Source of the DNA: Heptranchias perlo
Lineage: Eukaryota
Assembly (NCBI RefSeq): GCF_035084215.1
Contig: NC_090358.1
Location: 14,322,001-14,386,000, forward strand
Length of the DNA: 64,000 bases
Direction of reading: 5' to 3'
Both the position numbers and the translations under genes were made by a program. Position 1 is the first letter of the stretch; each line of letters begins with the position of its first letter. The notes under the pieces were generated by a model. The model did not search any database and was not told the origin of the DNA. It saw only the letters and a list, made by a program, of their open reading frames with translations. Shown here one piece after another: positions 5,180 through 64,000 of this stretch.

Positions 5180-5590
5180 AATTAATAAGTTGCTGGCTGA
5201 CTTCGATAAGTTGGGGAAACGAGTCTGCATGTAGCAGATGTCTTTCAACATGGACAAATGCATTGTCATACATTTGGGGAGGGGGAACTCCAAGTATGCT
5301 TCTACCACACGGTACCCATTAAAAGTTACTGATCAAGAGAGAGAGAGAGCTGGGTTAATAGTTGACAACTCTCACGCAGTGTGAGGTGGCCAAAGGGAAG
5401 GCTAATAGAGTTTTAGGGTGTATTGTGAGGGCTATCTGATTGTAATACAAACAGCACTACACTTGGGATATACAAGCTTTGGTACATCCACACTTGGAGT
5501 ATTGTGTCCAGTTTTGGTCCCCCCAACATGGTGAAGGATATCAAGGCTCTGGGGAAAGTCAGCAGAGAGAGACTGATTTTCCTGGATGTC
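5180..5590 (+). mobile_element. Degraded CR1 ORF2 fragment
   Basis: Translates to VHPHLEYCVQFWSP (CR1 RPHLEYCVQFWSP motif). Confidence 0.8.
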
Positions 5591-7963: not shown

Positions 7964-8862
7964 GTCAGCCTTGGCTCAGTGAAAGCACTCCTGTCTGAGT
8001 CAGATAGTTTTGGGTTCAAGCCCCACGCCAGACACTTGAACACGTAATCTAGGCTGACACTTCAGTGCAATACTAACGGGATGCTGCACTGTCACAGGTG
8101 CTGCCTCTCAGATAAGAGGTCCTGTCTGCCCTCACATGGGAACGTAGGAACAGGAGTAGGCCATTCAGCCCCTTGAGCCTGTTCCGCCATTTAGTGAGAT
8201 CATGGCTGATCTGTATCCTTACTCCATTACTGCCTTGGCTCCATGTTTCTTAATACCCTTGGTTAGCAAAAATCTATCTATCTCTGATTAAAAATTATTA
8301 ATTGAGCAACAGCTACTGCTTTTTGTGGGAGAGTGTTCCACACTTCTACCACCCTTTGTGTGAAGAAGTGTTTCCTACCTTCTCTCCTGAATGGCCTGGC
8401 TCTGATTTTAAGGTTATGTCACCTTGTCCTGGACTCCCCAAAAGTTTCTCTCTATCTACCCTATCAATTCCTTTCAAAATCCTAAAAACCTCAATCAAAT
8501 CACCCCAGAACCTTTCATATTCCAGGGAATGCGAGCATGGTTTATGTAATCGCTCCTCATAATTTAACCCTTGGAACCCTGGTAACATTCTGGTGAACAC
8601 TCTCAATTGAACATAAAAGATCCCATGGTACTATTGAATGAAAAACAGGGCAGTTCTCCTGTTGTCCTAGTAAACATTTATTCTTCAATAAACATCACTT
8701 CAAAAAAAAATTGGTCATTATCTCACTGTTGTTGGTATGACCTTGCTCCATTTCTCTACGTTATAACAGTGACCACATTTCAAAAGTACTTCATTGGCTG
8801 CAAAGCACTTTGGGATGTCCTGAAGTCATGAAAAGCACTATATAAATGTAAGTATTTTCTTT
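7964..8862 (+). mobile_element. DeuSINE (SacSINE1/AmnSINE1-like) interrupted by a CR1 fragment
   Basis: tRNA-like A and B boxes (tggctcagt, gggttcaagccc). The Deu-type core (gctgcactgtc..ggtgc; aaagatcccatgg) is split at about 8134/8601. Tail reads ctatataaatgtaag. Homologous to 47233-47643. Confidence 0.82.
8136..8600 (-). mobile_element. CR1 3' fragment nested in the DeuSINE
   Basis: Track ORF 8346..8606(-): FTRMLPGFQGLNYEERL..GDLIEVFRILKG. Confidence 0.88.
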
Positions 8863-38706: not shown

Positions 38707-40358
38707 GGGGGAAAAATTGGATAAGGGCCGTTTTTGGGCGTGAGTAGCGAGATGTGCTATCACCCCACGCCCAATGACCCCTGCGCAGGCAGAATGCAAG
38801 TTTCGGCCAGCAGGAGGACTCCCCTGCATTCAGCATTCCATTCTGGGCCTTGCATGTGGAATCAATGCAATTTGCAATTTGCACCACTAGGGGAGCTCAA
38901 TCTCTTAAAGGAAGGCTGTTTCTTCGAAATCTCTTAAAGGTAGCTGGTATCTGTTATTTGCTGAAAATAACTGTCTGCATGGAATCTGAATGGAGATCAG
39001 ACATCACACACATAAAACACAGTTGCAGGCCCCATTCTTATGTTTACACACTGAGTTATGTTAAAATATTGAATAAAGGTTGCACACTACTAAATTCCAT
39101 ATTCTCCAATCTGCACGCCAGACCTCACCAATCTGCTGTTCTGAGTTGGTACCAGGCCTGCGAGAGTGTGTACAGCAAGGTTCTCTGCTGATGCACTAGA
39201 GACCTTGGTGCAAGAGGTAGACAGAAGGAGGGACATCCTATATCTACAGCGGGAGGGGCGGGGTGGGGAAACAAGAGGCCCTCCAGACATATATCCAAAA
39301 GGCAGTGGGGGACAAAGTCAACGCCAGGCACACAGCATCACGAACATGGATGCAGCGCAGGAAGAAGTTCAATGTTTTGACATGAGTGGTCAAGTTGTGT
39401 GAGGTCAACTGTCAAATGGCGTCTCCTACCAACTGCACCACGCACTACACACCCCCCATCACCCACATACCAACAAACTCTTTCCATCTGTACTCAACTC
39501 TTCCAACCAGATGCTTCCTCTCACCCTTACACAGTACCACTGTTTCAAGCCGCCCACCAACAACTCAGGCCACACACACTAGCTATTCAACCATGACAGG
39601 CACATCACCCAGACACACGTCCCTCTTTCTTGCAGGAGAAGGTGGTGCATATCAGGAGGCAGCAAGTGGCAGTGGCATTTAGGCCCTCGAGCCTGTTCCA
39701 CCATTCAGTGGTGGACCTGTGACCTAATTCAATGTACCTGACTTAGCCCCATATCCCTTAATACCCTTGGTTCACAGAAATCTATCCATCTCAGATTTAA
39801 CATGCACAAGTGAGCTAGCATTAACTGCCATCTGCAGAAGAGCGTTCCAAATGTCTCCCACCCTTTGCGTGTAGAAGCATTTCCTAACTTCACTCCTGCA
39901 CATCCTGGCTCTAAATGTTAGGCTATGTCCCCACATCCTAGTATTCAAGTCTAGGAGACCTCCAAAAACAGTTACAAATGTCTCGGCAGCCAGAGGCAAT
40001 AATCCAGCCACTAACCTGTAAATCCTGCATGGTCCCTTTCAATAGCGCTGGTTGGGGTCCTCCAGGCACTCTAAGATATGTTCAGATGGTCAGGGTTAAG
40101 ACTGTGTGTAGAGTTGAGTGTTAAGTCCCAAAATGGTGTCCATCACTTTAAATCAGCATTGCACACTGAAGCCATTTTCTCCCTACTTTACATGATTCCA
40201 GCACTCGTTATCTGCACCTGCGTTAACTCCTATACCAAGATGGTGTCCGGCGCATGTCGCACTGGAAACGTACGTGCACATCCAAGACACCATCTTGGAT
40301 GTCAGAAAGGCCGTGTTGCGCCAAAACAACGGGCGCTACGCGGCCCAATTAACGTCCC
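38707..40358 (+). mobile_element. Harbinger-like transposon derivative with a Myb/SANT-like pseudo-ORF and a nested CR1 fragment
   Basis: Imperfect termini gggggaaaaattgg / ccaattaacgtccc. Peptides ARFSADALETLVQEVDRRRDIL and RTWMQRRKKFNVLT*VVK, then after a cttgcag acceptor EKVVHIRRQQ. Confidence 0.72.
39676..39950 (-). mobile_element. CR1 3' fragment nested in the Harbinger-like element
   Basis: Track ORF 39772..40011(-): GHSL..RKCFYTQRVGDIWNAL..KSEMDRFL. Confidence 0.85.
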
Positions 40359-42237: not shown

Positions 42238-42917
42238 CTATCACCAAGGCCGCCTACTTCCACGTCCATAACATCGCCCGTCTCCACCCTGCCTCAGCTC
42301 ATCTGCTGCTGAAACCCTCATCCATGCCTTTGTTACCTCTGGACTTGACTATTCCATTGCTCTCCTGGCTGGCTTCCTATCTCCCTCCTCCCATCCTCCA
42401 TAAACTTGAGCTCATCCAAAGCTCTGCTGCCTGTATCCAAACTTGCACCAAGTCCTGTTCACCCAACACCCCTGTGCTCACTGATCTACATTGGCTCCCG
42501 GTCCGGGAATGCCTCGATTTTAAAATTCTCATCCTTGTTTCCAAATCCCTCCAGGGCCTCGCCCCTCCCTATCTCTGTAACCTCCTCCAACCCCACAACC
42601 CTCCGAGATCTCTGTGCTCCTTCAGTTCTTGCCTCTTGCACATTGCTGATTTTAATCGCTCCACCAATGGCGGTTACGCCTTCAGCTGCCTAAGCCCTAA
42701 GCTCTGGAATTCCCTCTCTAAACTTCTCCGCCTCTCTACTGCTCTCTCTTCCTTTAAGACAGTCCTTAAACCTAGCTCTTTGACAAATCTTTTGGTCACC
42801 GGTCCTAATATCTCCTTATGTGACTCAGTGTCAAATTTTGTTTGATAACGGTGCTGTAAAATGCCTTGGGACGTTTTATGATGTTAAAGGTGCTATATAA
42901 ATGCAAGTTGTTGTTAT
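42238..42917 (+). mobile_element. L2 LINE 3' fragment
   Basis: Track ORF 42324..42845: LHWLPV..FKILILV.K.LQGLAPPYL..GGYAFS..PKLWNSL. Tail reads ctatataaatgcaagttgttgtt. Confidence 0.92.
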
Positions 42918-44361
42918 TGTGGAGCTTTACCCTGCATATGGGCTTGTTGAATTGGGACTGTTAGTTGTTGAAACTGGGTGCAAGAAATAGAAAAAAATCA
43001 GTTTCCTAGCACCCAACTTTCTTACTTTAATTAACATAAAACCAAGAGAATACATTTTATGTATAGGTGTGTGGAATGTGTACTTTCGAACACAGTTGGA
43101 TACTTCCATGATTACAAAACTTGATATGAGACATAATTACTCTGCTCTCGTCCCGGTTCTTTGCTTGGGTTTAACTCAACAGCAGGGTCCATGCAAATAC
43201 CACAAGCCACGATCTTTAAACTGGCATTGCTAACATCCTTGCCTGCATTGCTTCGAATGTCAAGCTGTGCAGTACACTCCCCTTTATAATGGCCTTTTCA
43301 GACCAGGCAAAAGATGTGGTATATGGGGGCCACAAAAAGAAAAAGAAAATGCCAGAAATAAAACCAGAATACACTGGAAATGCAGAACACACGCATCAGC
43401 ATCTGAAGAGTAGGTTCAGCACCTGATGGGCCTGCTGTGTATTTCCATCACTTGCTGTTATGGCTTGAAGAGGATAATTTAGAAAGCTCTCTGTTTAAAG
43501 AGGGAGACACACTTAGTGTTGTAGTGAAGGCCACGGTATGCAAGAGAGCTTCTACTGTGTAAGTTTTCAAAGTGGCTTCATGGACCCTCAATGGTTGAAG
43601 AAGTGACGCCATTGAGTCTTCGGGGTTATCCGATTTCTGCCCTTCTGAGCCTGGCCATACCATAAGTGCGGGCTCTCGAATTCTGTGCACTGCATTTTTT
43701 GACTTGTTAACGTTATTTCTGTTGCTCCGTACAAATAAAAAAATCTTTTCTGTTATAAAATGATTTTCCTTTGGGCAACTGACACTGTGTTTTGGAAGTT
43801 TGGACAAGAGGTCCCAGCAGTGTGTTGATATTTGCAGTCACTCCCATAAACGGGTTCAAAATCACTACTGTAAAGGGATTACACAGAACTTCTAACATCC
43901 TGTCCATCAATGATCCCTAAACAATACAACTTTATAATTTACTCCAATCATCTGCAATGTTGCTGCTAACTACAACCAATATAAATTGTTTGTTCCCTTC
44001 TCTTCACACTCGAGTGATTCTGTACCCCGTTAGACTTCAGTACACCGACTACTTTGAAATCCAATAGGAAAGGAGAAAAAAATGCCAAAAAGTAATTAAA
44101 GGAATTTTAATTTTTTGCAGTGGTTTTTGCCTTTCAGAAGCATTCTTGTTGTGCCTGTTTGGTCCTTACTTCAGTAATGCTGTGCAATGGAAAACGGGTG
44201 ACATTTATTTACATGACTGAATTGTTTGTATCTGTGTACGCTTAGAAAGGTCTAGTTTGTTTTTATTTTGAAGAACTACATTATCTGCATTATGATTGAA
44301 AGTGGGACAGGCCATCTATAATCACTGTGTCTCTAAAGAATTAATGATTATTCTTGCCCAG

Positions 44362-47232: not shown

Positions 47233-47643
47233 GTGTCAGCTGTGGCTTAGTGGCAGCACTCTCGCTTCTGAGTCAGAGGGTTGTGGGTTCAAGTCCCACT
47301 CCAGAGCATTGAGCACAAAATCTAGTACTGAGGGAGTGCTGCACTGTCGGAGGTGTGCCGTCTTTCAAATGAGACCGGTTAAACCGAGGCCCTGTCTGCT
47401 TCTCAGGTGGACTAGAAGAGCAAGGGAGTTATCCCCGGAGTCCGACCAATATTTATCCTTCAACCAACATCACTAAAACAGATTAACTATCACATTGCTG
47501 TTTGTGAGACCTTGTGTGTAAATTGGTTGCCGCATTTCCTATATTACAACAGTAACAACACTTCAAAAGTACTTAATTGGCTGTAAGGTGCGATGGGACT
47601 TCTTGAGGTCATGGTAGGCGCTGTATAAATGCAAATTTTTTTT
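47233..47643 (+). mobile_element. DeuSINE (SacSINE1-like), near full length
   Basis: A and B boxes (tggcttagtgg, gggttcaagtccc), Deu core tactgagggagtgctgcactgtcggaggtg, and an L2-like tail. Confidence 0.87.
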
Positions 47644-48769: not shown

Positions 48770-49222
48770 AAAGAAAGAAAACTTGCATTTATATAGCACC
48801 TATCATGTCCTCAAGACGTCCCAAAGCACCTTACAGCCAATGAAGTGCTTTTGAAGTGTAGTCTCTGTTGTAATGTAGGAAATGTGGCAGTCAGTTTGCG
48901 CACAGCAAGGTCCCACAAACAGCAATGAGATAATGACCAAATAATCTGTTTTCGTAATGATGTAGATTGAAGGATAAATATTGGCCAGGAGAGAACTCCC
49001 CTGCTTTTCGGAATAGTGCCATTGGATCTTTAGCGTCCACCTGAGAAGAGAGACGTGGCCTTGATTTTAACATCTCATCCGAAAGACCGCACCTCTGACA
49101 GTGCAGTACTCCCTCAGTACTGCACTTGTCAGCCTTGATTTTGTGCACAAGTCTTTGGAGTGGGACTTGAACCTATATCCTTCTGCCTCAGGCAAGAGTT
49201 CTACCACTAAGCTACAGCTGGC
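48770..49222 (-). mobile_element. DeuSINE (SacSINE1-like), near full length
   Basis: Reverse-complement homologue of 47233-47643. Confidence 0.87.
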
Positions 49223-49792
49223 ACTGGAGTCAGTTGGACACCTAATTAATCTCTGTAAAGCTTTCAGCTAAATGGAACTTGATCCAGTTTGAAGTATGCT
49301 CTTTATTGTGTTAAACTTTGATTTAGGAAGTCAGATTATGGAGGAGTTTTCTGCAGAATTGTGTAATCTGGAGTTTTCTTTCTGTAATTTTAATCTTTCA
49401 TGGACAATGGTATTCTGTACTAAAATAAAAGTATCACTAGCAGCTGGTTTCGGAGTCTTTTCAATAAACGTGTCATAAATGAGGTATAATATAGTTCTTT
49501 ATCTGTGTATAAAACTTTTAATGGCTATTAAAAATTGCTTGATTTGAAAGCAACAAAATTGACTCAATGCTTAGAAGAATTTAATATAGGAAGATAGAGC
49601 TTGCCTTTATATGGTGCCTTTCTCATCCTTGGGATGTCCCAAACCCTGCAATTCTGAATAAATATGTAACTTTTTTTGGAAGTATGAATTCTTTGCAACA
49701 TGTGTACCTGATTCATTCGAACATTGAAATCAATTTAAGCTTCTGTTTTATGCAAGATAAAAATGCTATTTTTCTCTGACTTGTTCTAACAG

Positions 49793-53694: not shown

Positions 53695-55608
53695 GATAAT
53701 ACAAGTGGAGAACCAGGCTGAATATAGAAAGTTCAGAGGGTAAGTGAAAAAGGAAATCAGAGGGACAAAGAGAGAGTATGAGAACAGATTGGCAGCTAAC
53801 ATAAAAGGGAATCCAAAAGTCTTCTACAGGCATGTAAACAGTAAACGGGTAGAAAGAGGAGGGGTGGGACTGATTAGGGACCAAAAAGGAGATCTATGCA
53901 TGGAGGCAGAGGGCATGGCTGAGGTACTAAATGAGTACTTTGCATCTGTTTTTACCAAGGAAGAAGATGCTGCCAAAGAAGAGGTAGTTAAGATACTTGA
54001 TGGGCTAAAAATTGATAGAGGAGACACTAGAAAGGCTGGCTGTACTTAAAGTAGATAAATCACCCAGTCCGGATGGGATGCATGCCAGGTTGCTGAGGGA
54101 AGTAAGGGTGGAAATTGTAAAGGTACTGGCTATAATCTTCCAATCAGCCTTAGATACAGGGGTGGTGCCAGAGGACTGGAGAATTACAAATGTTTACACT
54201 CTTGTTCAAAAAAGGGTGTAAGGATAAACCCAGCAACTACAGGCCAGTCAGTTTAACCTCGGTGGTGGAGAAACTTTTAGAAACGATAATCCGGGACAAA
54301 ATTAACAGTCGCTAGGACAAATGTGGATTAATTAAGGAAAGCCAGTGTGGATTTGTTAAAAGCAAATCGTGTTTAACTAACTTGATACAGTTTTTTTTTT
54401 AACAGAGAGGGTCGATGAGGGCAATGCGGTTGATGTGGTATATATGGACTTCCAAAAAGCATTTGATAAAGTGCCGCATAATAGGCATGTCAGCAAAGTT
54501 GAAGCCCATGGAATAAAAGGGGCAATGGCAGCATGGATATGAAATTGGCTAAGTGACAGGAAACAGAGAGTAGTGATGAACAGTTGTTTTTTGGACTGGA
54601 GGGAGGTGTACAGTAGTTGGTACTAGGACCACTGCTTTTCTTGATATATATTAATGACTTAGACTTGGGTGTACAGGGCACAATTTCAAAATTTGCAGAT
54701 GACACAACACTTGGAAGTGTAGTGAACAGTGAGGAGGATAGTGATAGACTTCAAGAGGACATAGACAGGCTGGTGGCATGGGCGGACACATGGCAGATGA
54801 AATTTAACGCAGAGAAGTGCAAAGTGATGCATTTTGGTCGGAAGAATGAGGAGAGGCAATATAAATGGTACAATTCTAAAAGGGGTACAGGAACAGTGTG
54901 ATCTGGGGGTATATGTGCACAAATCGTTGACGTTGGCAGGGCAGGTTGAGAAAATGGTTAAAAAAGCATATGGGATCCTGAGCTTTATAAATAGAGGTAT
55001 GGGGTTTAAAAGCAAGTTATGATGAACCTTTATAAAACACTGGTTCGGCCACAGCTGAAGTATTGTGTCCAATTCTGGGCACCGCACTTTAGGAAGGATG
55101 TGAAGGCCTTCCTATCCAAGAGAGGTTGGAGAAGAGATTTATTAGAATGGTTCCAGGGATAAAGGACTTCAGTTATGTGGATAGACTGGAGTAGCTGAGC
55201 TTGTTCTCCTTAGAGCAGAGAAGGTTGAGAGAAGATTTGATAGAGGTATTCAAAATCATGAAGGGTCTAAACAGAGTAGATAGAGAGAAACTGTTCCCAT
55301 TGGCAGAAGGGTCAAGAACCAGAGGACATCGATTTAAGGTGATTGGCAAAAGAACCAAAGGTGACACGAGGAAAAACTTTTTTACTCAGCTAGTGGTTAG
55401 AATCTGGAATGCACTGCCTGAGGGGATGGTGGAGGCAGATTCAATCGTGGCTTTCAAAAGGGAATTGCATAAGTACTTGAAGGGAAAAAATTTGCAGGGC
55501 TGCGAGGAAAGGGTGAGGGAATGGGACTAGCTGGATTGCTCTTGCAGAGAGCTGGCACAGACTTGACAGGCTGAATGGCCTCCTTCCATGCTGTAACCAT
55601 TCTATGAT
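53695..55608 (+). mobile_element. CR1-clade LINE, 5'-truncated, with frameshifted ORF2 (RT)
   Basis: ORF pieces KGNPKVFYRHVN, KSPSPDGMH, VPEDWR, LGPLLFLIYINDL..ISKFADDT, FSLEQRRLREDLIEVFKI, VVRIWNALP. 3' end reads tgtaaccattctatgat. Confidence 0.93.
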
Positions 55609-56224: not shown

Positions 56225-56515
56225 CATTCTCAGTATACTAATGGATTACTTTTGAAGTACAGTCACTGTTGCTATGCAGGCAAATGTGCACAGAATGGTT
56301 CCACAGACAGCAAATAAATGAATGACTGGATAATCTGTTTCTGGTGATTTTGGTGGAGGGAAGAATGTTGATCAGGGCACCAGGAAAATTCCCTGCTTCT
56401 CTTCAAATAATGTCATGGTATTTTTTTATATCCACCTGGGCGGGCAGATGGGGCCTCTGTTTATAATGCCATCCAAAAGACCACACCTCCGACAATGCAA
56501 CACCTCCTTTGAAGC
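56225..56515 (-). mobile_element. Degraded DeuSINE
   Basis: acttttgaagtacagtcactgtt and ccacacctccgacaatgca match the 48770 copy. Confidence 0.7.
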
Positions 56516-57710
56516 CCTGTTGAGGTTTCAGCTGTAAATTGTGCTTTAAGCTGTATACTGCACTTTAATTATGCATGCGAGGTAATCAAAGGGCTGTAAG
56601 GTTGGAGGTGTACTGCCCTCAACAAGAGTGTATGTGGGCCTCAACCTCCCCAATGGGTTGACGGGTGCCAGAGTTTCTTGTGAGGATGGACAGGTGGTTC
56701 TGAGATGGTCCAGAGATGAACCAGAGGTGGCACTTGGGACTGCTTGACCTAGGCAAAATGAGATGTCCTCTCTTTAACTCCAGATAAACTGGTGGGCTGG
56801 AAGGCACAGTTGTAGCAATAACCACCAGGATCACAGCCCGAGCAATTTCAGGGTCTCTGTTCTTAAGTGCAAAATGCAAATAAATGATTTCAACCAATTA
56901 AAAGATGTTATATTGAGGCTCATTAAAATGCATAATGTTCAGTTCACTTGTGATTTGTCATTTTTTTAATATATGTAAACCTTGGGGATTGTTTGCTGCT
57001 TTGCACAGTTTTTATTCTCGTCTGTGGTCTGCCTGTTATTTTTTATTCTGCGAAGAATACATGCAGATTCTGAGTGCAGACTGCCACCAATAAGCATGAA
57101 GGTCCATCGGGCATCAAGTATTTTTAGTTCATAAGAAATAGGAGCAGGAGAATACGGCCCCTCTAACATGCTCTGCCATTCAATCAGGTCATGGTCGATC
57201 TTCGACCTCAACTCCACTTTCCCGCCCAATCCCCATATCCCTTGATTTCCCCAGAGTCCAAAAATCTATCTATCTATCTCAGCCTTGAATATATTCAATG
57301 ACTCAGCATCCACAGCCCTCTGGGGTAGAGAATTCCAAAGATTCACAACCCTCTGCATGAAGAAATTCCTCCTCATCTCAGTCTTAAATGGCCGACCCCA
57401 TATCCTGTGATTATGCCCCCTAGTTCTAGACTCCCTAACCAGGGGAAACAATCTCTCAGCATTTACCCTGTCAAGCCCCCTCATAATCTTATATGTTTCA
57501 ATGAGATCACCTCTCATTCTTCTACACTCCAGAGAGTATAGGCCCATTCTACTCGATCTCTCCTCATAGGACAAGCCTATCATTCCAGGAATTAGTCTAG
57601 TGAACCTTTGTTGCACCACCTCTAAGGCAAGTATATCCTTCCTCAGATAAGGAGACCAAAACTATACACAGTTCTCCAGGTGTGGTGTCACCAAAGCCAT
57701 GTATAACTGT

Positions 57711-57835
57711 GATGTGGAGATGCCGGTGATGGACTGGCGAAGGAGATAATCACCTGACGAAGGAGATAATCTCCGAAAGCTTGTGATTTTCAAATAAAAC
57801 TGTTGGACTATAACCTGGTGTTGTAAGATTCCTTA
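57711..57835 (-). mobile_element. Miniature PLE insertion (tail plus inverted hammerhead segment)
   Basis: TSD catgtataactgt at 57698-57710 and 57836-57848. 57710-57737 is the reverse complement of tail 61983-62010. 57748-57838 matches 61883-61973 with a few substitutions. Confidence 0.92.
57748..57788 (+). ncRNA. Minimal hammerhead ribozyme motif in the miniature PLE insertion
   Basis: AAUCAC-CUGACGA-A-GGAG-AUAAU-CUCC-GAAA-GCUU-GUGAUU, with a fully Watson-Crick stem I. Confidence 0.88.
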
Positions 57836-58088
57836 CATGTATAACTGTAGTAAGACTTCCTTACTCTTGTACTCTAACCCCCTTGCAATAAAGGCCAACA
57901 TGCCATTTGCCTTCCTAATTGCCTGCTGTACTTACACTTTCTGTGCTTCTTGTGCGAGGACACCCAAGCCTCTCAACACCAACATTTAATAGTTTCTCAC
58001 CATTCCAAAAATATTCTGCTTTTCTATTCTTCCTACCAAAGTAAGGAATCTTACAACACCAGGTTATAGTCCAACAAATTTATTTTAA

Positions 58089-58129
58089 AATCACAAGCTT
58101 TCGGAGATTATCTCCTTCGTCAGATGATT
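58089..58129 (-). ncRNA. Minimal hammerhead ribozyme motif, mirror copy in the left arm
   Basis: Exact reverse complement of 61883-61923. Confidence 0.88.
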
Positions 58130-58365
58130 GAATGAAAAGGTTCTCAAATCGCATATCTTATACGATGTTGGGACAGCATCACACCAATCAAAAGGTGTCG
58201 TTGTTATTCAAACAGGCCAGTCACGGAGAACAGCACGTCCCAGTACACTCGATATACATTGTGTCTTTTACACAGGCAGGCAGAAAGAAACTTAAAATGG
58301 CAGAGAGAGAGAGAGAGAGAATTTTAAAAAACATATAAATTTTTTCCCCCTTTTTGCTGGTGGGG

Positions 58366-59804
58366 TTACGTGTAGCGTGACATGAACCCAAGATCCCGGT
58401 TGAGGCCGTCCTCATGGGTGCGGAACTTGGCTATCAACTTCTGCTCGACGATTTTGCGTTGTCGTGTGTCTCAAAGGCCGCCTTGGAGAACGCTTACCCG
58501 AAGATCGGTGGCTGAATGTCCTTGACTGCTAAAGTGTTCCCCGACTGGGAGGGAACCCTCCTGTTTGGCGATTGTTGCGCGGTGTCCGTTCATCCGTTGT
58601 CGCAGCGTCTGCATGGTCTCGCCAATGTACCATGCTCCGGGGCATCCTTTCCTGCAACGTATGAGGTAAACAACGTTGGCCGAGTCACAGGAGTATGAAC
58701 CATGTACCTGGTGGGTGGTGTCCTCTCGTGTGATGGTGGTATCCGTGTCGATGATCTGGCATGTCTTGCAGAGGTTGCCGTGGCAGGGTTGTGTGGTGTC
58801 GTGGACGCTGTTCTCCTGAAAACTGGGTAACTTGCTGCGAACGATGGTCTGTTTGAGGTTGGGTGGCTGTTTAAAGGCGAGCAGTGGAGGCGTGGGGATG
58901 GCCTTAGCGAGGTGTTCGTCGTCATCGATGACATGTTGAAGGCTGCGGAGAACATGGTGTAGTTTCTCCGCTCCAGGGAAGTACTGGACGACGAAGGGTA
59001 CTCTGTTGGTTGCGTCCCGTGTTTGTCTTCTGAGGAGGTCTATGCGATTCTTCGCTGTGGCCCGTCGGAACTGTCGATCGACAAGTCGAGCGTCATATCC
59101 CGTTCTTACGAGGGCGTCTTTCAGCGTCTGTAGGTGTCCATCGCGTTCCTCCTCGTCTGAGCAGATCCTGTGTATTCGTAGGGCCTGTCCATAGGGGATG
59201 GCCTCTTTGACGTGGTTGGGGTGGAAGCTGGAAAGGTGGAGCATCGTGAGGTTGTCCGTGGGCTTGCGGTAGAGTGAGGTGCTGAGGTGCCCGTCTTTGA
59301 TGGAGATTTGTGTGTCCAAGAAAGAAACCGATTCTGAGGAGTAGTCCATGGTGAGTTTGATGGTGGGATGGAACTTGTTGATGTTATCGTGTAGTCTCTT
59401 CAGTGATTCTTCGCCGTGGGTCCATAGGAAGAAAATGTCGTCGATGTATCTGGTGTATAGTGTTGGTTGGAGGTCCTGTGCAGTGAAGAAGTCGTGCTCG
59501 AACTTGTGCATGAAAATGTTGGCGTATTGGGGTGCGAATTTGGTCCCCATGGCTGTTCCGTGTGTTTGGGTAAAGAACTGGTTATTGAAGGTGAAGACAT
59601 TGTGATCCAGGATGAAGCGGATGAGTTGTAGGATGGCGTCTGGAGATTGGCTGTTGTTGGTGTTGAGTACTGAGGCTGTTGCAGCGATGCCGTCATCGTG
59701 GGGGATACTGGTGTATAGTGCCGAGACGTCCATCGTGGTGAGAAGTGTTCCTGGTTCAACTGGTCCGTGGGTGCTGAGTTTTTGTAGGAAGTCTGTAGTG
59801 TCGC
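58366..59804 (-). pseudogene. Inverted, more truncated copy of the same PLE RT-GIY-YIG ORF
   Basis: Track ORF 58471..59733(-) matches the + copy except HDNIN/HDIIN and LHLSS/LHFSS. The same premature TGA is at 58471-58473. Confidence 0.93.
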
Positions 59805-61646
59805 AACGCCATCAACGCTCTCAAGACCAACCGAAACATCGTCATCAAACCAGCGGACAAAGGAGGAGCCATTGTCATACAGAACAGAACGGACTATTGC
59901 AAAGAAGCATACCGACAACTGGACAACCAGGAACACTACAGACGGTTACCCGCAGATCCGACCAAAGAACACACCCACCAGCTCAACAAACTGATCAAGA
60001 CCTTCGATCCAGACCTTCAAAGCATCCTACGCACTCTCATCCCACGTACTCCCCGCGTGGGTGACTTCTACTGCCTCCCAAAGATACACAAAGCCAACAC
60101 ACCCGGACGTCCTATCGTATCAGGCAATGGAACCCTGTGTGAGAACCTCTCTGGATACGTCGAGGGCATCCTGAAACCCATTGTACAGGGAACCCCCAGC
60201 TTCTGTCGCGACACTACAGACTTCCTACAAAAACTCAGCACCCACGGACCAGTTGAACCAGGAACACTTCTCACCACGATGGACGTCTCGGCACTATACA
60301 CCAGTATCCCCCACGATGACGGCATCGCTGCAACAGCCTCAGTACTCAACACCAACAACAGCCAATCTCCAGACGCCATCCTACAACTCATCCGCTTCAT
60401 CCTGGATCACAATGTCTTCACCTTCAATAACCAGTTCTTTACCCAAACACACGGAACAGCCATGGGGACCAAATTCGCACCCCAATACGCCAACATTTTC
60501 ATGCACAAGTTCGAGCACGACTTCTTCACTGCACAGGACCTCCAACCAACACTATACACCAGATACATCGACGACATTTTCTTCCTATGGACCCACGGCG
60601 AAGAATCACTGAAGAGACTACACGATATCATCAACAAGTTCCATCCCACCATCAAACTCACCATGGACTACTCCTCAGAATCGGTTTCTTTCTTGGACAC
60701 ACAAATCTCCATCAAAGACGGGCACCTCAGCACCTCACTCTACCGCAAGCCCACGGACAACCTCACGATGCTCCACTTTTCCAGCTTCCACCCCAACCAC
60801 GTCAAAGAGGCCATCCCCTATGGACAGGCCCTACGAATACACAGGATCTGCTCAGACGAGGAGGAACGCGATGGACACCTACAGACGCTGAAAGACGCCC
60901 TCGTAAGAACGGGATATGACGCTCGACTTGTCGATCGACAGTTCCGACGGGCCACAGCGAAGAATCGCATAGACCTCCTCAGAAGACAAACACGGGACGC
61001 AACCAACAGAGTACCCTTCGTCGTCCAGTACTTCCCTGGAGCGGAGAAACTACACCATGTTCTCCGCAGCCTTCAACATGTCATCGATGACGACGAACAC
61101 CTCGCTAAGGCCATCCCCACGCCTCCACTGCTCGCCTTTAAACAGCCACCCAACCTCAAACAGACCATCGTTCGCAGCAAGTTACCCAGTTTTCAGGAGA
61201 ACAGCGTCCACGACACCACACAACCCTGCCACGGCAACCTCTGCAAGACATGCCAGATCATCGACACGGATACCACCATCACACGAGAGGACACCACCCA
61301 CCAGGTACATGGTTCATACTCCTGTGACTCGGCCAACGTTGTTTACCTCATACGTTGCAGGAAAGGATGCCCCGGAGCATGGTACATTGGCGAGACCATG
61401 CAGACGCTGCGACAACGGATGAACGGACACCGCGCAACAATCGCCAAACAGGAGGGTTCCCTCCCAGTCGGGGAACACTTTAGCAGTCAAGGACATTCAG
61501 CCACCGATCTTCGGGTAAGCGTTCTCCAAGGCGGCCTTTGAGACACACGACAACGCAAAATCGTCGAGCAGAAGTTGATAGCCAAGTTCCGCACCCATGA
61601 GGATGGCCTCAACCGGGATCTTGGGTTCATGTCACGCTACACGTAA
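59802..61646 (+). pseudogene. 5'-truncated PLE polyprotein: reverse transcriptase, Cys-rich linker and GIY-YIG endonuclease, with one premature TGA at 61539-61541
   Basis: The frame is open from RNAINALKTNRNIVIKPADKGG. Motifs: FYCLPKIHK, GRPIVS, MDVSALYTSIP, GTAMG, RYIDDIF, FLD, CHGNLCKTC, NVVYLIRC..C..YIGET, RMNGHR, VGEHF. After the TGA it continues DTRQRKIVEQKLIAKFRTHEDGLNRDLGFMSRYT*. Confidence 0.93.
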
Positions 61647-61882
61647 CCCCACCAGCAAAAAGGGGGAAAAAATTTATATGTTTTTTAAAATTCTCTCTCT
61701 CTCTCTCTCTGCCATTTTAAGTTTCTTTCTGCCTGCCTGTGTAAAAGACACAATGTATATCGAGTGTACTGGGACGTGCTGTTCTCCGTGACTGGCCTGT
61801 TTGAATAACAACGACACCTTTTGATTGGTGTGATGCTGTCCCAACATCGTATAAGATATGCGATTTGAGAACCTTTTCATTC

Positions 61883-61923
61883 AATCATCTGACGAAGGAG
61901 ATAATCTCCGAAAGCTTGTGATT
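61883..61923 (+). ncRNA. Minimal type I hammerhead ribozyme motif in the PLE terminal repeat
   Basis: AAUCAU-CUGACGA-A-GGAG-AUAAU-CUCC-GAAA-GCUU-GUGAUU. Stem I is AAUCAU/GUGAUU, the core is CUGANGA and GAAA, stem II is GGAG/CUCC, and stem III is loopless and palindromic (AAGCUU). Predicted cleavage after 61917. Confidence 0.88.
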
Positions 61924-61927
61924 TTAA

Positions 61928-61933
61928 AATAAA
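61928..61933 (+). promoter_or_regulatory. AATAAA polyadenylation-type signal of the PLE terminal repeat (also at 57793-57798)
   Basis: The hexamer is kept in both PLE variants although the flanking bases differ. It is followed by a GT-rich tggtgttgt. Usage is not shown. Confidence 0.5.
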
Positions 61934-64000
61934 TTTGTTGGACTATAACCTGGTGTTGTAAGATTCCTTACATTTGTCCACCCCAGTCCATCACCGGCAT
62001 CTCCACATCATCCTACCAAAGTGAATAACCTCACATTTCCCCACATCATACTCCATCTCCCACCTTCTTGCCCACTCACTTAACCTGTCTATATCCCTTT
62101 GCAGACCTTTGTGTCCTCCTCACAGCTTGCTCTTCTCTTGACTATTGAACCTTAACCTGGTTACCATTGCAATTGCCTTGCTTTGGGTGGCTCAGTTTGG
62201 TACCAACAAATAAGCTAGGATTTGACAAACTAATTCAGCAAGTGAAACTTGCTTTGTAGCTACAGCCCTTTACATAGCTTCAGCAGCACATTGAAATTCT
62301 GTCTCTGCACTTGAGCACTCCCACTGGGTAACCAGGATATTGTCTTGCATATTTAATTAACCCCAAACCTAGGCATCCAGGTGCAATAAATTATGCAGGG
62401 GGCCTGCTGCCCACCATTCCTGTTGACATTGTGTCTATCCTTACAAGTGAAGAGATGGTTTGTGAAATGACTCCATGTTAAAATTTCAATATAGTCAGAC
62501 TGGATAGAATTAACAAGGAGAACAGATAACAGACAGGCGTATTTAGCTCCCATCACTATAACAGGAGGATAAGTTGTAATTGTGAATTATTACTTGATTT
62601 GACAGCAATTCCTGCACAATAATAGTTTAATTCAACATGTCAGATTTGTTGATGGCACAAAAATCTTCTTTTGATTTGTACAGTTATATTTAATGTCCTT
62701 TGACAGGAAGCTCACACTGTGCAATTTAAAAGCAAAAATCAAGAGAATTTTCCTTTCATGGATATTCAAAGTAATTTTCAAGATGACTGTTGCTGAATGA
62801 GTAATGCATTGCATTTTTAACAAGTTTCATTTTTACTTGAAAATCAGAAATGGAAGATTGCCCATTTTTCTCCATAATTAATGATCCATTAACAAAATTG
62901 CAGGAACACACAGCTTTGAACAGTGCAATGTTTAAGATTTTATTAGCTGGCTGTTAAATGTGGATAAAATCCATGTTTCACCAAGAGGAATTCCACCCCA
63001 TATGTTCCATTAGGTTAAATCTAATACCTATTTTCTGATCTTTTTCTAAGTTACTTATGGATTGACTTGTATGGGCACTTAGCTGCAATAAATCGAAGTG
63101 TTTTTTTGGTTTCTATTACTAAGTAAGTTAATGTTCTTTTAAACAATTTCTATATATGGTCGTTTGCACATCTACACGCATGTGTTAGACTTTTGTTTAT
63201 TAGATTTTATAAACAAAGTGATTTTTTTTTTACGTCACTGTTGGCTTTTGGTTTACAAGGGGGCCAGATGTACATATCAGCTAATCCTCATTTTAAATAC
63301 TCTAGTATCTCTTTTGAAAAATACCTAGGTTGTAATTTAGTACTGTTCCATAACAAATAAACAAATGTTGTTCTAAATAATCTAAGCTTCTGAAGAGGGA
63401 AAAGAAAATTTCCTAATTCAGTCATCAGTTTTTTTTTCTGGTTGTACTCGAAGCAGTTTGGCTTTGAATTGAAGTTGATTTTTCCCTCCTATAATGGCAG
63501 TGCAAATGTTGCCAAATAGATATCCAGAAAGGTGTGAAATTGGATTTATTCCTCCAGATTGGCTGTTCTTGTGCCAGCTAGGACTTGTATTGGTTCTCAT
63601 AACAATAGTCCTGCCCAACTGTAACGTGGTTTAACTCATTTTTGATCTCATGGGTTTGACTCTGATAGCTGCTAGGCATGTAGATAGACTGAGATAAATT
63701 GTATTGGGTACCATTGGGCAAGTCCCAAATTTCTCATCGTTTAATGCTTTTTTTAATAACCTGCAAGTTATGGTTTAATATGCATTTTCATTTTTACCCA
63801 TGGGGAACAGAGTTCTAACCTAGTACATTATTTTGTTCAGAATTCCACAGGTAGGGGAGAAAAGGAATAACAGTGTATGCTTGCAACATTTTGTGGAGTG
63901 TGGGCTGGTTAGGTATGACTGGTTTGGTTATGATGTTTGGTTGGTTGCCTAATGGACTCCATAGTCTTTCATGAAATCAGCTAGAGAGTTCTCCCTCTTT

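Follow-up and report, generated by a model that had tools for sequence, protein, structure and literature searches.

A mirror-image Penelope-like insertion within one target-site duplication in the shark Heptranchias perlo

Endonuclease-bearing Penelope-like elements (EN+ PLEs) are described as units bounded by inverted repeats, with an inverted, 5'-truncated copy directly at the 5' end (Craig et al. 2021, PMC8557442; Arkhipova et al. 2013, PMC3846280), and with a tail of 30-40 bp on one end only (PMC8557442); head-to-head is the most frequent inverted arrangement (PMC3846280). The origin of these tandem and inverted structures was called an open question in 2021 (PMC8557442). We report here on a large PLE insertion of the same layout, found in a stretch of 64,000 nucleotides from the shark Heptranchias perlo (assembly GCF_035084215.1, contig NC_090358.1, positions 14,322,001 to 14,386,000 of the forward strand), hereafter called the window, whose own numbering is used throughout. 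An earlier reading of the letters alone, the first-pass annotation, had singled it out as an unusual palindromic event. The event is real, but the layout is a common one, already described for PLEs and not of a new kind (PMC8557442, PMC3846280), and cutting and extension of both target strands are known as well (PMC11167929).

Both strands of the target are cut and then extended by the purified Poseidon protein of Anolis (PAc), a predicted dimer, which starts reverse transcription internally, at two sites that mark the limits of the tail (Frangieh et al. 2024, PMC11167929). The steps following initiation were left unvalidated in that in vitro work. Hammerhead motifs of metazoan PLEs, including pairs on opposite strands, have also been described (Cervera and De la Pena 2014, PMC4209133); sharks are unmentioned in the portion of that paper covered. 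In the literature searched, which left the main older PLE reviews outside its coverage, no statement linking dual priming to inverted copies and no paper on shark PLEs of this kind were found; the portion covered of a preprint on retrozymes and PLEs (10.64898/2026.07.22.740005) held nothing relevant. The locus described here does not settle the question of PLE structures, and offers modest clues to how mirror-image insertions form.

Layout and ends of the large insertion

By its sequence, the large insertion is identified as a 5'-truncated PLE of a shark family. Self-comparison of the window returned one long inverted repeat. Positions 58041-59804 are the gap-free reverse complement of 60208-61971, with 3 mismatches over 1764 sites (58408/61604, 59235/60777 and 59384/60628); the base-by-base comparison thus reproduces exactly the arms and differences listed by the first-pass annotation. 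The left arm (58041..59804, minus strand, 1764 bp) is an inverted, 5'-truncated and tail-less copy, which extends from the core of the reverse transcriptase (RT) to the end of the pseudo-long terminal repeat (pLTR), as located by tblastn of relatives, with its 3' end facing left. The right copy, also 5'-truncated, is longer (59802..62010, plus strand, 2209 bp) and is composed of a single-copy spacer of 403 bp (59805-60207, plus), the counterpart of the inverted arm (60208-61971, plus) and a 39-nt tail (61972..62010, plus), which lies between the two RT start sites suggested by the end points. The tail is absent from the left arm, so that the arms are asymmetric: of the two outward-facing copies, one begins at the tail end (62010) and the other 39 nt upstream (61970-61971). 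A one-sided tail of 39 nt compares with the 30-40 bp given for EN+ PLEs (PMC8557442). The inverted arm covers 1.76 kb and most of the open reading frame (ORF), whereas that of the rotifer examples amounts to about one pLTR (181-212 bp) (PMC8557442, PMC3846280); no table of PLE arm lengths was found by which the rarity of 1.76 kb could be gauged. Truncation of both copies has left the element in the window without the direct upstream pLTR of the EN+ PLE layout.

The insertion lies within a long interspersed nuclear element (LINE). A 12-mer, present at 58031-58042 and at 62011-62022 (plus strand), is the longest string common to both flanks; the last 2 nt of its left copy (58041-58042) are shared with the element where the tail-less arm starts. 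When the insert and one 12-mer are excised in silico, the flanking LINE ORF aligns gap-free over 52 aa with named shark and ray LINE proteins (ten were aligned, with output shown for four), whereas 4 extra residues appear when both copies are retained. The 12-mer is therefore the true target-site duplication (TSD). For each arm on its own, the flank comparison found no bracketing duplication longer than 5 nt. Since the LINE frame is restored and neither arm is singly bracketed, the large unit is one insertion within one 12-bp TSD, in agreement with the single TSD and the single event of two joined 5'-truncated copies that had been proposed for it. TSDs are 8-10 bp long in rotifer PLEs (PMC3846280) and 12-13 bp here.

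Two simple alternatives are affected by these results. In the first, a second element would have inserted at the 5' end of an earlier one, and gene conversion would later have homogenised the pair. PLE protein can indeed target its own sequence in vitro (PMC11167929), and a second member of the family did land 200 bp away; the single TSD, the lack of separate bracketing and the standard single-unit layout (PMC8557442) make such a history very improbable. In the second, the mirror image would be a fold-back artefact of assembly or of reads. Assembly is difficult where inverted repeats are long and nearly perfect (PMC8557442), and the analysis was made from the assembly. This explanation has to contend with the three differences between the arms, two of which change an amino acid away from the family residue, one in each arm, and also with the 403-bp spacer, the tail on one side only, the unique flanks on both sides of a TSD restoring the LINE frame, and termini which match those of an independent insertion; its probability appears slighter still.

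The two copies meet head to head at 59802..59807. The 3' ends of the two complementary DNAs (cDNAs) share there 3 exact nucleotides and, when 59802-59807 is compared with the continuation of the left arm, 5 of 6 positions, slightly more than the probable CGC microhomology given by the first-pass annotation. Among 200,000 random draws of truncation-point pairs, 3 exact matches occurred in 1.4%, and 3 exact matches together with at least 5 of 6 in 0.19%. The residue preceding the RNA(I) motif is Q in all 11 fetched proteins having the motif (Q-R-N-A) and C in the window (C-R-N-A), a change which places the start of the right copy at or after 59802. The native R codon at the junction would be CGC, the codon used for 13 of the 41 R residues of the ORF. 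The DNA fold of the junction recovers only the arms. A perfect 10-bp palindrome (60204..60213) spans the end point of the inverted arm; 44 of the 2209 element positions (2.0%) lie within such palindromes, and this one is not independent of the junction microhomology.

The reading favoured here is that the unit rather probably arose in one integration event, in which each of the two cut strands of the target served as a primer for RT, at fixed sites separated by 39 nt, and microhomology then joined the ends of the cDNAs. Priming from both nicked strands had been proposed by the first-pass annotation, which left unconsidered a fold-back of the first cDNA giving the same final sequence. In a fold-back, a single cDNA, primed at the tail end and run to 59802, would anneal its 3' end to itself at 60205-60210, forming a 403-nt loop, and serve as its own template; 39 nt before the end, this second strand would be broken off, by the endonuclease of the element or through a template jump, and joined to the left flank. 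Such a process would make use of the same 5-of-6 microhomology, and the inverted arm is indeed contained within the longer one. For inverted PLE junctions an origin by self-priming has been suggested (PMC3846280), inverted duplications formed by self-priming have been reported from L1-induced ends (10.1101/2024.12.14.628481), and the tail has been ascribed to endonuclease resolution of an intermediate (PMC8557442). A fold-back would nevertheless need a sequence-specific stop exactly at the site of RT initiation measured in vitro for a relative, and, in the light of this and of the results given below, it is judged rather unlikely.

Common source of the two arms

Both large arms carry a TGA at 61539-61541 (right-copy coordinates), which removes the last 35 residues of the endonuclease; these include a Glu and a GLN motif that are conserved in relatives, and that we take to be catalytic. 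Among 42 H. perlo proteins, 25 reach this codon, and 24 of the 25 read R, a proportion which overstates how private the TGA is, since stop-bearing copies are under-represented among gene models. In the two copies closest to the element (99% identity, agreement at 14 of 14 subfamily columns), the codon is intact. The one protein ending there, P0301, is identical to the arms at 202 of 209 residues and differs from them at two subfamily columns; its stop probably arose through a separate mutation of the CpG.

When 24 H. perlo proteins were compared, the arms agreed at 19 of 19 polymorphic protein columns. Agreement at all shared polymorphic columns was found for 4 of 210 pairs of database copies, and none of 203 pairs was as alike as the arms. 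The shared TGA and the agreement at all 19 columns thus point to arms that derive from one source copy, or of which one was copied from the other, or which have been homogenised. The alternative put forward by the first-pass annotation, two RNA templates or one template read twice, is narrowed by these data to a single source copy, read from one molecule or from two. Decay of this CpG in each arm separately was considered and rejected, about 0.001 being expected. At codon 209 (60426-60428), N is read in both arms and D in 14 of 16 relatives; this is possibly a second shared change of CpG type, which would suggest an already aged source copy.

A fold-back would account for the shared stop and the shared alleles most simply, with no extra assumption. 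Against it, the stop is a CpG transition, which suggests that a source copy decayed in the genome and not that RT made an error. Arms of the same source would also be expected if the head-to-head unit had already existed, in the source locus or as an antisense or self-primed transcript, and had been copied whole; self-priming on an antisense template has been proposed for head-to-head PLE structures (PMC3846280). This origin is regarded as improbable: the left end has a target-template microhomology of its own at the fixed second site, RT would have to traverse a 1.76-kb hairpin, and no sibling with the same junction was seen among the data at hand, a search of the host genome not being part of the work.

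A second insertion and the formation of the arms

About 200 bp from the large insertion, in the same LINE and in opposite orientation, lies a second insertion of the same PLE family, 128 bp long (57710-57838), here called the mini insertion (57698..57848 with its TSDs). Its 13-bp TSD (57698-57710 and 57836-57848) was confirmed by restoration of the LINE frame. It is made of a tailed arm of 28 nt (57710-57737, minus strand), identical to 61983-62010, a re-read piece of 10 nt (57738-57747) and a tail-less arm of 91 nt (57748-57838, plus strand), which contains the hammerhead and is 96% identical to 61883-61973. The 4 differences in these 91 nt mark the mini insertion as older or as an event of its own. 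The two insertions terminate at the same two element sites within 1-2 nt, and at the tail-less ends the target matches the element over 2 nt in the large insertion and 3 nt in the mini one. At the mini junction (57738-57771) a 14-nt direct repeat with 20-nt spacing starts at the 5' edge of hammerhead helix I; RT may have slipped, or re-annealed, 20 nt back on the same template between two 4-nt matches. The two insertions are the only family members detected in the 64 kb, and their closeness may be due to a favoured target or to homing at short range.

The arms of the mini insertion do not overlap, element positions 61974-61982 being missing. Its tail-less arm consequently cannot be a fold-back copy of the tailed one, unless a deletion followed. 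As the 91-nt arm and the 28-nt arm have no sequence in common, the second site needs priming of its own, under the same proviso, and this argues for priming on both strands. A further agreement is found in the spacing between the predicted hammerhead cut and the tail end, which is 93 nt here and 85-92 nt as computed from the numbers given for PAc (PMC11167929). PAc (PMC11167929) resembles the window element in its two internal RT start sites, which delimit a tail downstream of a hammerhead, and differs from it in belonging to the Poseidon clade, the window element having a linker of Neptune/Nematis type. No ATT motif common to the four nick sites deduced here was found. The tail region showed no significant RNA fold (z -1.1 and +0.5), and a stem-loop of the PAc type was not confirmed in it.

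Another parallel is offered by the twin priming of L1, which is said to go back to Ostertag and Kazazian in 2001; breakpoint duplications of L1 are generally short. In that process too, the second target strand primes internally, an inverted 5' part lies within one TSD, and the parts are joined by microhomology (PMC12350158, 10.1101/2024.12.14.628481). The mini insertion looks just like its product. The window element differs in having no poly(A), a second priming site fixed at 39 nt from the first, and an overlap of 1.76 kb. The first strand does not appear to have been primed on poly(A) by a LINE of the apurinic/apyrimidinic endonuclease (APE) type, there being no poly(A) at either end of what is a GIY-YIG element. 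The process resembles twin priming, but the large insertion was not made by L1. The first-pass annotation went too far in holding that L1 twin priming gives only non-overlapping parts, since twin-priming insertions with breakpoint duplications are reported (PMC12350158).

Of what priming on both strands involves, the staggered double cut (seen in the 12-bp TSD), the end points, the junction and the common source are observed, and the order of the steps is suggested by the anole biochemistry and by the mini insertion. A staggered cut by the GIY-YIG endonuclease would leave two 3' overhangs, each of which would prime reverse transcription on the element RNA at one of the two fixed internal start sites, with the assistance of 1-3 nt of pairing between primer and RNA. 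One RT would extend for 2.2 kb and the other for 1.76 kb; the 3' ends of the cDNAs would then anneal through the 5-of-6-nt microhomology, and host repair would fill in. The reaction would amount to twin priming with fixed start sites. Overlapping arms, as in the large insertion, would form when the tailed cDNA passes the second site, and arms without overlap, as in the mini insertion, when it stalls inside the tail. Since the stop in both arms cuts off the last part of the endonuclease, mobilisation of the RNA probably took place in trans; this would weakly favour a single RNA, either read by two RTs in convoy or offering two units within a tandem transcript, as somewhat likelier than two independent RNAs.

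Several points weigh against this reading. A fold-back yields the same final sequence for the large insertion, although it cannot produce the mini one without a secondary deletion; the mini insertion, on the other hand, is a single case, and could be a larger unit after such a deletion. The inverted arm ends in the 10-bp palindrome, a feature previously taken as a mark of self-priming (PMC3846280). The in vitro work was done on another clade, Poseidon, and gave no difference in start site between the strands; its main text does not discuss inverted copies, the word 'inverted' occurring once, for a blocking nucleotide (PMC11167929). The stop recurs in 1 of 25 relatives (P0301), so that the CpG site mutates recurrently, and the annotated proteins against which it was judged are biased against stop-bearing copies. 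Gene conversion between the arms could also explain the shared changes.

A bolder form of the favoured reading, put forward tentatively and considered doubtful, is that PLE insertion is routinely a programmed twin priming on one RNA: a dimer of the protein would use the two cut strands as primers, at fixed sites lying 39 nt from each other, and the RT that follows would displace the cDNA made by the one ahead. If so, one RNA would give rise to two overlapping kilobase cDNAs; tail, inverted copy and head-to-head junction would all come from one step; and the large and mini insertions would be its overlapping and non-overlapping outcomes. Priming on both strands and fold-back can be told apart by genomic data, namely the overlap of the arms, fixed end points and shared private mutations, and this shark PLE family, in which near-identical copies number at least dozens, lends itself well to such counts. 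If transcribed, the 1.76-kb near-perfect inverted repeat could also provide double-stranded RNA against the family.

Element family, age and surroundings

The truncated ORF (59802..61646, plus strand, interrupted by the TGA) is assigned RT, linker and GIY-YIG regions. The frame from 59802 gave a Pfam match to RVT_1, with the YIDD motif at 60564-60575 (plus); a CxxxxCxxC linker at 61227-61253 (plus) is conserved in relatives. Motifs of GIY-YIG type with two Cys and two His (CCHH) align to relatives, some of which bear PF01541; in the window ORF itself, Pfam returned no GIY-YIG match. The Neptune and Nematis clades are distinguished by a CX2-5CxxC linker between RT and endonuclease (PMC8557442); the linker found here has this form and makes the element a candidate member of one of the two. 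The locus displays several features of EN+ PLEs, with a single ORF in which RT is followed by a C-terminal GIY-YIG endonuclease, a tail on one end only (39 nt, within 30-40), an inverted 5'-truncated copy adjoining the 5' end with the whole unit in one TSD, and a candidate hammerhead in the pLTR.

This last motif, a predicted minimal hammerhead of type I (61883..61923, plus; mirror copy at 58089-58129, minus), was found as a sequence motif by a descriptor of our own, and comprises a helix I of 6 bp, the conserved core, a bulged A and helix II, with no helix III. The cut is predicted after 61917. The descriptor matched 3 times in the window, always in pLTR copies, and never in 30 random 64-kb sequences; RNA fold prediction shows helices I and II, and the only helix I difference between hammerhead copies preserves pairing (G-C vs G-U). 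An Rfam search of 56500-63000 at E<=5 gave no match. The motif resembles the described metazoan PLE hammerheads in having no helix III and an unpaired base before helix II, as well as a G10.1-C11.1 pair and a palindromic 15.2-16.2 (PMC4209133).

The best matches of the element are with the H. perlo gene model XP_067848012.1 (96% identity, cluster of 54), with identity reaching 99% to XP_067840994.1; other sharks stand at 74-87%, Scyliorhinus torazame at 87%. The family is represented in gene models of Heptranchias perlo, Scyliorhinus torazame, Mustelus asterias and Chiloscyllium punctatum. These models lack names and genomic context, and the window copy differs from them by its premature stop. 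Exact look-up of 8 window-encoded stop-terminated proteins found none of them in the protein collection, and a sequence search of PDB with a full-length relative returned no solved structure. When the fetched proteins were searched for translations of pLTR or tail, one 6-residue match (P0068) was obtained, and nothing on the sequence downstream of the tail. Gene models spanning inverted PLE copies were sought as well, with a weak yield of 1 of 43 (E 4e-4) and 0 of 27 named shark proteins. In P0068 (XP_072410591.1, Chiloscyllium punctatum), an antisense pLTR-like stretch (E 4e-4) lies about 35 residues before a sense RT stretch; this may be one more head-to-head insertion, in which one arm is short and the arm opposite it long, a weak indication given that gene models may be spliced.

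The arms diverge at 3 of 3528 sites, that is 8.5e-4 (95% interval 1.8e-4 to 2.5e-3). If all three differences arose after insertion, and if the epaulette-shark mutation rate of 7e-10 per generation (PMC10587355) applies, the insertion would date back about 1.2 million generations (0.25-3.6 million); the true age could be shorter owing to RT errors, CpG rates and differences among species. The insertion, described as young by the first-pass annotation, is so only relative to other repeats.

Both insertions are hosted by an older degenerate LINE (57215..62107, minus strand), the 3' part of an APE-RT ORF, recognised by matches to APE-RT LINEs of cartilaginous fish and presumably of the CR1 type. 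No host gene was detected near the insertion: of 212 stop-to-stop frames of at least 62 aa, 149 (from 16045 onward) were compared with Pfam, and the 2 matches were both RT fragments. Degenerate RT fragments related to the host LINE were seen at 53777-55527 and 5190-5523 on the plus strand, and at 21061-21351, 8290-8603, 39736-40011, 334-507 and 16410-16589 on the minus strand. Older dispersed repeats in inverted orientation, with 75-78% identity (17146-17589 vs 42468-42923; 47233-47643 vs 48774-49224), are probably independent copies of LINEs or short interspersed elements. In the H. perlo gene models P0128, P0025 and P0247, copies of the same PLE family as the insertion are fused to a gene with a divergent kinase domain, to epn2 and to a cytochrome P450, respectively, probably by annotation read-through into intronic insertions. 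Within the 3' region of the element, an (AG)n/(CT)n microsatellite (58302-58320 and 61692-61710) is of equal length in both arms.

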